Made by a program: the position numbers. 44,227 bases of DNA from Escherichia phage ASU11. Location: sequence record ON416862.2. The stretch is one strand, 5' to 3'. Below are positions 6,001-9,000 of the stretch, one piece after another; position 1 is the stretch's first letter; each line of letters starts with the position of its first letter.

Positions 6001-9000
6001 CATTAATCCTGAACGTGGTGGTGGCCGGTTCCCCCTGCTGGCCATAACTGTTAATCGCCCTGACCGTCAGGGTGTATTCCCCGAGCGGCAGACCACTGAA
6101 ACGATGCTCTGTATCCGCAGTGATGGCGGTGGTCACCAGACGGCTGTCTTCTCCGCTTCCGCTGGTCAGGCGCAGACTGAAGCGCACACCCTTCACCACC
6201 CGCGGCGTGTCCCATTTCGCCTGTGCCAGATACTGACCGTCAGCCGCGCTCACCTCCACCGTCAGGTGCTGCACTGCCGGTGGAATAACGCTGTTCAGGG
6301 TGCCTGACTGCGGCTCAAAGCTGGCCCCGTTATCCACGATGGCTTCTTTTTCCGGTACGTGCTGCACCGCCGTGATGGCAAAGGTGCCGTCCGTGTTTTC
6401 CCGGATGGAGACACAGCGGAACAGGCGACGACGCAGTGACGGCAGGGAGAGTCCCCATACACCGTATGTCTCCACACCATCCGGCAGGGTGCTGACCTGT
6501 ATCCGGTCCGGCGCGGGGTGTGCAGTGATGGCCACGCTCACCGGCTTACCGCTGCCGTTAATCAGGTTCACCGTGGCGGCACCTGTCTCCGGCAGGGTCA
6601 CCTCACGGTCCAGTGTCAGGGTGCGGCTGGAGGCATCGATGGACAGGATACGTCCGCCGGTCATGGTCCCGGCATAGTCGTTATCACAGATTTCAATAAT
6701 GTCACCGGGTGTGTGACGCAGCCCCTGTGACCCGAGCGTGAAATCCACCGTCTGCGTTTCCAGCAGTTCGGTCTTTATCACCCACAGCCCGGCACGGTGG
6801 GCCTGACCGCGGCTGGTACAGCCGAACGCGTCCATCTTCAGCAGGTTGCGTCCGTAGCGCAGTATGGCTTCCGGGTCTTCCACCAGTTCCGTGGAGGTCT
6901 GCCAGCCGTTCTGCGGGTCGGTGTAATTCACCTCCACCGCCGTGTGCCGGTCCTTCAGGGCACTGAAGCTGTAGCGGAATCCCACGCCGTTATCATCCAC
7001 CACCACATCGCTGTTGGTGTACGGCCACACCACATCCGACGGGCGGTCCTGAACGAACGTCAGCGTCTGACCGTTCCATACCGGCATACAGCGCATCGCA
7101 GAGCAGAAATCACTGAGAACGTCCCACGCCTTACGCTGTTGTGCCAGGTACGCATTAAAGGTCATCCGCGGCTCGGTCCCCCCGAAACCATCCGGGACCG
7201 TCTGGTCGCAGTACTGCCCGATGGCATACAGCGCCCACTTGTCCACATCCGCCGCCCCCAGACGTTTTCCCATGCCGTAGCGCGGGTGAGTCAGCATGTC
7301 CCACAGACACCAGGCCGGGTTGTTGCTGTATGCCGGTTTCAGACTGCCGTCCCAGATACCACTGTACGTGCGTTTTTCCGGGTCATAGTTTGACGGCACC
7401 TGGATGATGCGACCGCGGATATGGTAGTTCACCGTCATCTGCTGGCCGCCGAACTGCTCCGCATCCACCTGCAGCCCCACAATGGCCGTGTTCGGGTAGC
7501 ACTGTTTCACATCGATGATTTCGGTGTATGACGACCACAGCGTCTTATTCTGCAGCTGGTCCGTGGTGCTGTCCGCCGTCTCCCTGACCATCCGGATGTT
7601 AAAGGGCCGGGGAGGCAGATTATCCAGAATCACCGAGGCCAGGAACTGTGAGGTGGTCTTGCCGTTAATGGTGACGTCCTTTTCTGTCACCCAGTTACCG
7701 TTACGCTGTAACTGAATCAGCAGGCGGACGGATGCCGGGTTACGGTCACCCTTTGAGGTGGTCTCCACCAGTGACTGCACCCCGAAGGTAACCCGCAGGC
7801 GGTCAATGTTCGCGGACGTAATGGTGCGCGTCACCGGTTTTGCCTTCGTCACTTCCACGCCCAGTCCGGTTTCAGCTCCGGAGGACTCAAAGCCTTCCGG
7901 TGGTGTCTGCTCCTGCTCCCCGGCACGCCAGACCGCGGTCACACCGTGTATCACGGGATTGCCGTCCGTGTCCGTCAGTGGGGTTTTGTTCACCAGAATA
8001 CTCTGCAGTCCCTTCACCGGACCTTCTATCGGTCCCTCACCAATCGCATCAATCACACTCATCATCTGCGTGGATTTGAGATTATCCTTCGCCTCACGAG
8101 GCGTGTGTGCCTTACCGCCACCTTTTCCCATACAGCCTTCCCCTGAATAAATTAACCGCCACTTGCCATTCCGTACAGAAGTCGGATATCCTTCGCCCGA
8201 AAAGCATGAAACACATTTCTGCCATGCTAAAGAGAAACCCCGGTATCAGCAGATACCGGGGTTTTCTTTCATGCCCACCGATAATCCTGTTGGTTAAAAC
8301 CGGTAATGGCATAAAAATTCTGAATATCTTCACATTTTCACACACTGACTGTGGCGCTTATAATTTCGCTGCGTTAGTGTTTTTTTGCCCGAGTAACAAA
8401 AACAACTCCTTAACATTGATCTTCATTTGTCTGTCCCCGCAGCTCCGCGATCACTGCGGGATTTTTTTATGTTTTATCCCTGTCGCCCGACAACCACGAC
8501 CGTTCCGCCCCCGCCTTCATCACGGGTGCTGATGTCCTGGGATATACGGCGGGAGCCAACCAGCATTTCCCCGTAAGGCACCGGCATCGGGTTCCCCTGG
8601 GCAATCATGTTATCCAGCGAGGAAAAGTACGTGTTCTGTCTGCCGTTATCCGTGCTTTTGTACTCCGGTGTTTTTGCCTTCGGGGCCAGCATCTGGGCCA
8701 CACCGCCCAGAATCATGCTGGCTCCAAGTGAAAACAGCATCGTGGTGGCAGAAAAACCACCGGCTGCCAGGGCTGAACCCCATAACGCCATTGATGCCCC
8801 GGCAGTGAAGAAAGAGCCCACGATGGCTGCCGCCCCCAGCACAATCTGCAGTCCACCCTTTCCGGCCCCGGCCAGTCGCGGCACAATATGGATGACCGTT
8901 CCCTCACCCAGCTGTTCGTGAAGACGGGCGTACACCGCCTCCGGTGCCGTGTCATAACCGGCAATACGTATCTGGTACCAGCCTTCGTTCATCTGACGGC

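Follow-up and report, generated by a model that had tools for sequence, protein, structure and literature searches.

Extra genes of the moron type are represented in lambda by, e.g., lom and bor (Juhala et al. 2000). Among the non-coding RNAs of lambdoid prophages, the small RNAs (sRNAs) AgvB and AsxR are 51-60 nt long, are encoded downstream of PR' and carry the motif CACAACA (Tree et al., Mol Cell 2014, PMC4104026; Rfam RF02702/RF02703). Another one, PasB (pathogenicity-associated sRNA B), was discovered by RIL-seq, in which interacting RNAs are ligated and sequenced, in prophage PP6 of enteropathogenic Escherichia coli (EPEC) O127:H6 E2348/69 (Pearl Mizrahi et al., Sci Adv 2021, PMC8550237). 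It is entry E2348CN_0006 in Table S6 of that paper, with 83 nt on the minus strand of NC_011601 (1466343-1466261) between E2348C_1436 and E2348C_1437, and its function is stated there as unknown. We have analysed a DNA stretch of 44,227 nt from Escherichia phage ASU11 (ON416862.2; the window), in which a promoter-to-terminator unit had been predicted in the gap between the tail genes I and J. We are confident that this unit is the gene of the Hfq-dependent prophage sRNA PasB in the form of a one-base variant, and that the perfect 13-bp hairpin in the same gap is a separate module. The unit is therefore already known: the original prediction rediscovered a published sRNA gene from the sequence alone.

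The published Northern probe for PasB (AATCCCGCAGTGATCGCGGAGCT; PMC8550237) matches positions 8441-8463 of the minus strand exactly, with this single match in the window and none in shuffled sequences; since the probe matches the minus strand, the RNA lies on the plus strand. The PasB reference (NC_011601, 1466343..1466261) and the corresponding stretch of the window are identical in 82 of 83 nt, and in the alignment of both loci over 8316-8480 the only differences are at 8325 and 8412. In E2348/69, PasB is antisense between a gene for a 'tail assembly protein' (ending at 1466255) and gpJ (starting at 1466496). The same antisense location between I and gpJ, within the structural operon, was found in the window and likewise in six other phages. 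As the tail genes occupy the minus strand and the unit the plus strand, its description as antisense to them was correct. The predicted plus-strand terminator was also recovered, by the terminator scan, as inverted repeats and in the fold, and consists, as expected for PasB, of a 7-bp stem followed by U7. The proposed plus-strand non-coding RNA of about 100 nt corresponds to a real gene, the E2348/69 copy of which was demonstrated by Northern blotting and RNA-seq, but the published size is 83 nt (8386-8468). The hairpin falls outside this RNA.

According to a recent preprint that surveyed the distribution of PasB (Zhu, Shabalina and Storz 2026, bioRxiv 10.64898/2026.05.13.724894), a single nucleotide, the one at position 27, separates PasB from PasB-2, the commonest variant is not that of E2348/69, and PasB is reported from Escherichia and Shigella only. 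The RNA of the window carries A27 and is consistent with PasB-2. The Rfam search of the gap gave no match at the gathering threshold, Rfam 15 having no PasB model, and at E <= 10 the region 8050-8560 produced weak, terminator-driven matches to unrelated families, far under their gathering scores. No paper was found by a full-text literature search for the hairpin and PasB-variant sequences, and a contig search with the pattern CCCGCAG-N(4-12)-CTGCGGGATTTTTT was too generic, as it yielded terminators of unrelated phyla.

The existence, size, strand, Hfq dependence and RIL-seq partners of PasB were all established with the near-identical E2348/69 copy. There, the RNA was validated by Northern blotting, and the hfq deletion changed its level by log2 -6.8 under the activating and by log2 -2.4 under the non-activating condition (PMC8550237). 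The RNA-seq baseMean values of PasB were 482 and 1082, whereas those of I and J on either side were 5 and 15, and PasB is therefore expressed from the repressed prophage. It was more abundant in overnight static lysogeny broth (LB) than in exponential Dulbecco's modified Eagle medium (DMEM). It had 37 RIL-seq partners, and in the chimeras PasB nearly always took the second position, which is typical of an sRNA (PMC8550237). The rows of Table S3 covered here include the virulence partners ler, perB, bfpB, bfpI, map, espC and cesD2, one gene of prophage PP9, and as host partners ftsZ, galE, rplX, fabR, hflX, the napF 5' untranslated region (5'UTR), yhhX, caiF, the tolC 5'UTR, the raiA 5'UTR, the nlpD-rpoS intergenic region, gshA, glk, ffh and others (PMC8550237). 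With dozens of partners and with I and J nearly silent in the lysogen, the evidence favours a trans-acting Hfq-bound sRNA over a dedicated antisense RNA against the tail genes. The features of the gap and its flanking genes are listed in Table 1.

Table 1 Features of the I-J gap and of the two flanking genes (positions in the window)
Feature	Position	Strand	Basis or remark
Left module of the gap	8132-8307		Not homologous to the 75 bp found at this place in the usual 240-bp I-J gap
Perfect 13-bp hairpin, 4-nt loop	8235-8264		Inverted repeat 8235-8247/8252-8264
Palindrome TCTGA-N6-TCACA, AAT/TTT flanks	8319-8334	+	9/10 match to CRP core
Sigma-70-type promoter candidate P1, TTCACA-16 bp-TATAAT	8337-8364	+	Promoter scan, 11/12; predicted start ~8371
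Second possible -10, TAGTGT (TAnnnT)	8375-8380	+	Start ~8387, one base from the published 5' end 8386
PasB sRNA, 83 nt	8386-8468	+	Ends mapped from E2348/69 coordinates; 82/83 identical
A-rich tract AACAAAAACAAC, four A-A-N triplets	8395-8406	+	Read from the sequence
Predicted single-stranded stretch UCCUUAACAUUGAUCUUCAU, PasB nt 22-41, putative seed	8407-8426	+	Unpaired in the centroid folds of both variants
Sole difference from E2348/69 PasB, A vs C, PasB nt 27	8412	+	Alignment
PasB intrinsic terminator	8436-8468	+	Stem CCCGCAG 8436-8442/CTGCGGG 8454-8460, 11-nt loop, U7 8462-8468
Tail assembly protein I gene	8474-9154	-	Open reading frame; Pfam PF06805 Lambda_tail_I, E = 2.3e-16
Tail tip/host specificity protein J gene, 1163 aa	4640-8131	-	Open reading frame; GpJ-type

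The promoter of the original prediction, TATAAT with a TTTTCA -35 at 18-bp spacing, is present and scores 10/12 (-10 at 8359-8364); the best -35 is TTCACA (8337-8342), which gives the candidate P1. In all, the scan gave three promoter-like sites in 1.4 kb versus 0.9 expected. The P1 -10 is invariant in most of the eight homologues derived by BLAST and matches in at least 5 of 6 positions in 50 of the 55 distinct family units from IMG/VR, its -35 being variable. At the second possible -10, TAnnnT was found in all 55 distinct units, including a divergent tandem copy in which TATAAT is missing and TAGATT is kept. This conservation and the fit to the published 5' end suggest that TAGTGT could be a promoter element. 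If the TATAAT promoter is in use, PasB may start at about 8371 and be 98 nt long, versus a start at about 8387 with TAGTGT; the sequence alone does not decide between the two.

Upstream of P1 there is a palindrome, the right half of which (TCACATTT) is the consensus, whereas the left half CTGA is neither CRP-type nor FNR-type. Taken alone it is not significant, as three matches to the CRP core were found in the window versus 1.6 expected. Its half-sites are invariant in the eight BLAST-derived homologues, in which only two central spacer bases vary; in the IMG/VR set the palindrome is conserved by construction of the search pattern, and this set is uninformative on its conservation. Counted from the published 5' end, the palindrome is centred at about -60.5 to -61.5, and counted from the TATAAT start at -44.5. 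CRP activates from -41.5 (class II) and from -61.5 and further upstream (class I). The distance to the published 5' end is thus a class-I distance, whereas -44.5 is non-canonical. The static overnight LB culture with the higher PasB level is also one in which the CRP-repressed Spf was about 5-fold lower, growth phase and oxygen differing as well between the two cultures. We put forward a CRP/FNR-like control of the PasB promoter as a hypothesis. A discussion of the promoter is absent from Pearl Mizrahi et al. (PMC8550237) and from the available part of Zhu et al. (2026). The two other matches to the CRP core (TGTGA-N6-TCACA), each with one mismatch and both on the plus strand, are at 14399-14414 and 28001-28016, their count being within chance expectation; the latter is directly upstream of the STnc100 gene (27762-27976, minus strand).

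The 5' part of the RNA contains an A-rich tract that may serve as a site for the Hfq distal face according to the ARN rule (PMC4104026). If the RNA starts at 8371, this tract can pair with the U-run 8378-8384, as seen from the inverted repeat and the fold. Within the following unpaired stretch, nt 22-30 vary between the clades of the family, and AAUCUUC is conserved. The C27 and A27 variants fold alike, with an unpaired middle and the terminator, and differ in one marginal stem-loop of the minimum free energy structure. In one family member, a compensatory change in the terminator (CCCACAG/CTGTGGG) was seen by eye.

Complementarity to the partners was examined with the RIL-seq fragments and flanks of 12 strong partners, in which the exact complements of every PasB 6-mer and 7-mer were counted; folding of the whole PasB against the partners gave meaningless full-length duplexes, and k-mer counts with shuffles were used instead. 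The complement of CCUUCA (nt 23-28) was present in 7 of the 12 partners versus 0.9 expected, and a count of 7, at whatever position, was attained in only 4 of 300 dinucleotide shuffles. Compared with 2.2 Mb of E. coli phage DNA, 1.3 of 12 were expected (binomial P 1e-4, uncorrected for about 90 k-mers). The complement of CUUCACA was found in 4 of the 12 partners (0.3 expected), and a weaker signal was given by CUUCAU (nt 36-41). The longest matches were AAUGUGAAGGA at the fabR-yijD junction, CAAUGUGAAG in the napF leader and UGUGAAGGA, which is shared by ler and caiF. Many of the partner fragments cross start codons or gene junctions. It is most likely that nt 22-41 are used as the seed. If nt 22-30 take part in pairing, the four best duplexes would each have a central mismatch at A27, which creates UCCUUAAC instead, the complement of GUUAAGGA. 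The A27 variant thus probably has a target preference somewhat different from that of the E2348/69 RNA.

Although an insert of 340 bp between I and J was rightly noticed (the gap, 8132-8473, has 342 bp), it is not one insert, but two modules that reassort independently. The left module has no counterpart in E2348/69 and in the six other phages, the gaps of which have about 240 bp. The perfect 13-nt repeat in this module was confirmed, its coordinates being 8235-8264 instead of 8235-8270. The hairpin is far more stable than expected by chance (z = -6.4 and -5.1 for the two strands), and none of 200 shuffles was as stable on either strand. It is flanked by an A-tract and T-tracts and resembles an intrinsic terminator on both strands: the stem is followed by UUUCUCUUU on the minus strand and by UUUUCUUUC on the plus strand, which agrees with the sequence criterion for intrinsic terminators, termination itself being only predicted. 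It was not listed by a simple terminator scan. On the minus strand, the hairpin separates the PasB promoter region from the J ribosome-binding site. At the equivalent place, the gaps of the E2348/69 type contain a hairpin CAGGCACC-loop-GGTGCCTG followed by UUGUUUUUG on the strand of the tail genes. Among 125 IMG/VR units, 43 had the 13-bp hairpin and 74 had the GGCACC hairpin. Since each hairpin type was found in combination with several PasB variants, the two halves reassort, with a junction near 8308.

Lambda I and J had been taken as adjacent. They are in fact 60 bp apart, and this gap, which is without PasB, contains its own hairpin AAACCGCC-TGCG-GGCGGTTT followed by UUUUGUCAUUU on the sense strand. 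A GC-rich stem with a U-tract before J thus appears as a positional constant represented by three unrelated sequences, in the window, in the E2348/69-type gaps and in lambda. We found no described function for the I-J hairpin of lambda or of the window. A sense-strand hairpin at this place is constant in lambdoid phages, lambda included. The hairpin of the window may modulate expression of J. Q-modified polymerase is processive, which argues against strong attenuation of J during lytic growth.

The following explanation appears to us the best. The PasB gene (about 8318-8468, plus strand) is a self-contained 'moron' that has a promoter and a terminator of its own and is inserted antisense into the late tail operon. 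It would be transcribed in the lysogen while the surrounding tail genes are silent. The RNA is predicted to be mostly unstructured in its 5' two-thirds, which comprise the A-rich tract and the putative seed, and to end with the terminator hairpin and U-tail. It would bind Hfq, on which its stability would depend, and base-pair in trans with many host and virulence mRNAs, often near translation start regions. The left module, which is not part of the RNA, is one of at least three unrelated versions of a stem-loop with a U-tract before J on the strand of the tail genes. Its hairpin most likely works at the level of the late mRNA, by terminating polymerase that lacks the Q modification and/or by serving J mRNA as a barrier to decay or as a 5' cap-like stem. 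The version in the window could also shield the PasB promoter from plus-strand read-through.

Several points weigh against this explanation. The functional data were all transferred from E2348/69 and hold for this prophage and for A27 by analogy; for the window, the promoter used, the regulator, the seed, the effect of nt 27 and every function of the hairpin are inferred. The near-consensus TATAAT predicts a 98-nt RNA, which exceeds the published length by 15 nt. RNAalifold gave no consensus structure for 26 distinct family members, and no covariation beyond the one change in the terminator was found; the failure is explained by MAFFT, which mis-registers the divergent terminators. As UGAAGG is purine-rich and similar to a Shine-Dalgarno sequence, its enrichment may partly reflect general Hfq-bound sites in mRNAs. 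The MEME analysis by Pearl Mizrahi et al. gave no common motif in the PasB targets (PMC8550237), and Zhu et al. (2026) place the seed 'just upstream of the terminator' on the basis of conservation, in partial overlap with nt 22-30. As to the hairpin, it is precisely missing from the natural variant L237 (IMG/VR), in which the region equivalent to ~8219-8266 reads …GAAACACATTTC joined directly to TTTCATGCCC…, apparently after a deletion between short TTTC repeats; the hairpin is hence dispensable at least for prophage maintenance.

PasB might instead act mainly in cis, by pairing during lytic growth with the late transcript downstream of I, with RNase III cleavage or altered expression of I and J as the outcome, and the adjacent hairpin would then set the end of the J-proximal fragment. 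The geometry would suit such a role: the 3' end of PasB is 6 nt from the I stop codon (8474-8476) on the opposite strand, the RNA is complementary throughout to the intercistronic RNA of I and J, its place between these two genes is maintained in all family members and in free phage genomes, and the sense-strand hairpin always follows PasB. Nevertheless, we consider a mainly cis-acting PasB unlikely. In the only data set, which covers the lysogen, PasB is abundant and I and J are silent, E2348C_1436 and E2348C_1437 do not occur in the RIL-seq table, PasB has its 37 partners in trans, and lambda has the hairpin but not PasB.

Somewhat less probable still is that the 13-bp hairpin is the terminator of a second plus-strand sRNA, transcribed upstream of PasB from about 8199 to about 8272. 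A promoter-like site TTGCCA-18-TATCCT (8163-8192, 9/12) precedes this stretch, the hairpin is followed by the plus-strand sequence given above, and folding of the 82-nt stretch gives z = -6.4. However, the site is a weak promoter match, and the z-score is due to the hairpin alone. No Rfam match over the threshold and no paper containing the hairpin sequence were found, the identity of at least 99% everywhere makes the conservation of the module uninformative, and the equivalent hairpins elsewhere have a U-tract only on the strand of the tail genes.

That the RNA is a sponge of GcvB, an anti-sRNA like AgvB in which the CA-rich tract at 8395-8406 mimics the GcvB R1 targets, has a precedent in the prophage anti-sRNAs known from enterohaemorrhagic E. 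coli (EHEC) (PMC4104026), but it is very improbable, as no gcvB-pasB pair was present in the RIL-seq rows covered, a scope that does not extend to the sRNA-sRNA block of the non-activating sheet. The least credible alternative is a small protein encoded in the gap, either the 22 aa MKINVKELFLLLGQKNTNAAKL (8361-8426, minus), 141 aa (8107-8532, plus) or 77 aa (8112-8345, minus): such open reading frames (ORFs) exist and some phage records have a 'hypothetical protein' here, but none of them matched a Pfam or PHROG family, none is conserved in start, frame or length across the eight homologous gaps, the 22-aa ORF has ACG in place of its ATG in 4 of 8 homologues and shows a frameshift or an extension in two more, relatives lack the long ORFs, family indels of 1, 2, 4 and 5 nt fall within the ORFs, and the 141-aa ORF crosses two terminator hairpins. 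The gap is thus not a conserved coding remnant, and the absence of a true ORF assumed at the outset holds.

The PasB-type units are common. Of 5426 complete E. coli genomes, 1445 contain the full gap by BLAST, and 1612 contain the PasB half or more; the left module was present in 1446 of the 5426 with an identity of at least 99%, apparently always in this context. In all genomes listed, RefSeq has no annotation under the gap match. The PasB half (8308-8473) occurs with 74-99% identity in Stx1, Stx2 and other lambdoid phages including VT1-Sakai, always between I and J; no EHEC homologue of PasB is listed by Pearl Mizrahi et al. (PMC8550237). Common to the eight BLAST homologues and to the 55 distinct IMG/VR units are the palindrome, the -10, TAnnnT, the U-run, the A-rich tract, a yUCCUUA-like sequence, AAUCUUC and the terminator CCCGCAG/CTGCGGG with its U-run. 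Some IMG/VR contigs, namely L141 (9820-10200, minus strand) and also L196 and L216, contain two tandem PasB-like units, spaced by 179 bp and located between I and the GGCACC hairpin. The copy nearer to J has diverged strongly: its terminator is CUCCCGUUAAU...AUUGCGGGAG and TATAAT is absent, whereas the palindrome, TAGATT and ACUCCUUAAGG are kept. In one further unit (TTCTGAATATCTTCACATTTTCACAAACTGAACCGCCCCGGG...), an apparent insertion-sequence end with a transposase start (…GGTAAACAGGATGACTAAAAATACACG…) directly follows the PasB -35, and this unit would be a natural PasB knockout.

A wider interpretation, which we regard as possible but doubtful, is that PasB-type genes are diversifying 'seed cassettes' and that, at the same time, the sense hairpin before J is an undescribed control point for J in lambdoid late operons. 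In such cassettes, the promoter, the CRP/FNR-like operator, the AAUCUUC core and the terminator would be constant and nt 22-30 would vary by clade, and lysogens with different variants or tandem pairs would rewire different host and virulence mRNAs (e.g. ler) according to carbon or oxygen status. The variant carried may matter: in EPEC, PasB contacts the mRNAs of bfp genes and of ler and perB, which are master regulators of virulence, and the variant of the window differs within the stretch that best matches those partners. The gap would also be better labelled pasB than left blank, as in RefSeq, or given a spurious 'hypothetical protein', as in some phage records. The PasB papers (Zhu et al. 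2026 in its available part) contain neither the two-module gap, the recurrent hairpin before J, the CRP/FNR-like palindrome, the second -10 and the tandem PasB-like pairs, nor the position of the PasB/PasB-2 polymorphism within the stretch most complementary to the RIL-seq partners.

The flanking genes were identified clearly. The product of J contains six GpJ-specific Pfam domains (E = 1e-25 to 1e-42), and a gene for a K-like JAB/NlpC-P60 protein (Pfam) precedes I and J. With its start at 9154, the longest I ORF shares 103 nt with the end of the K-like gene (9052-9795), and lambda K and I overlap likewise; since I of E2348/69 is annotated shorter in RefSeq, it is uncertain where I truly starts. 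The gap is 100% identical to that of 'PPompW' prophages (LC567818-LC567841) and of many O145, O26 and other E. coli chromosomes, and the window is probably a lambdoid prophage integrated at ompW. Other RNA genes of the same prophage detected with Rfam are STnc100 (159 bits), C4 antisense RNA (85 bits), isrK (57.6 bits) and three tRNAs, located at 27762-27976, 37010-37097, 37122-37198 and 29385-29633, respectively, all on the minus strand. STnc100 and PasB thus occur together in one prophage here; Zhu et al. (10.64898/2026.05.13.724894) associate STnc100 not with PasB but with PasD and with the flanks of PasA, PasC and PasD.

Compared with AgvB and AsxR, PasB is likewise a short Hfq-binding RNA from an independent unit of a lambdoid prophage, expressed in the lysogen, with a variable 5' part and a conserved terminator. 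AgvB and AsxR, however, lie downstream of PR' whereas PasB lies between I and J, there is no similarity in sequence or covariance model, and they sequester a host sRNA, for which there is no evidence in PasB. CACAACA is absent from 8371-8468, and RF02702 and RF02703 gave no match in the gap even at E <= 10. Identity with AgvB was rejected as the locus, size and motif differ (PMC4104026) and as the Rfam AgvB/AsxR models match nowhere in the window. The lambda I-J hairpin (NC_001416, ~15463-15482; gap 15445-15504) resembles that of the window as a GC-rich stem-loop with a U-tract on the strand of the tail genes before the J ribosome-binding site. The two hairpins have no sequence similarity, the stem has 8 bp in lambda versus 13 bp in the window, the distance from the J start is 30 nt versus 103 nt, and only the version of the window has a U-tract on the opposite strand too.

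With the morons of the lambda type, PasB shares the extra DNA between two conserved late genes (the I-J gap has 60 bp in lambda versus 240-342 bp), the own promoter and terminator, and expression from the repressed prophage under late-gene repression, the expression being transferred from E2348/69. The cargo of PasB is nevertheless a non-coding RNA instead of a protein, with an orientation opposite to that of the late operon. The closest known system is PasB of E2348/69 itself. Besides nt 27, the two loci differ in the DNA between the promoter and J, where about 75 bp with the GGCACC hairpin stand in place of the 176-bp module of the window, and in the host prophage, which is PP6 in E2348/69 and of the ompW-integrated PPompW type in the window, whereas the promoter region from 8316 on, the terminator, the location and the orientation are all the same.

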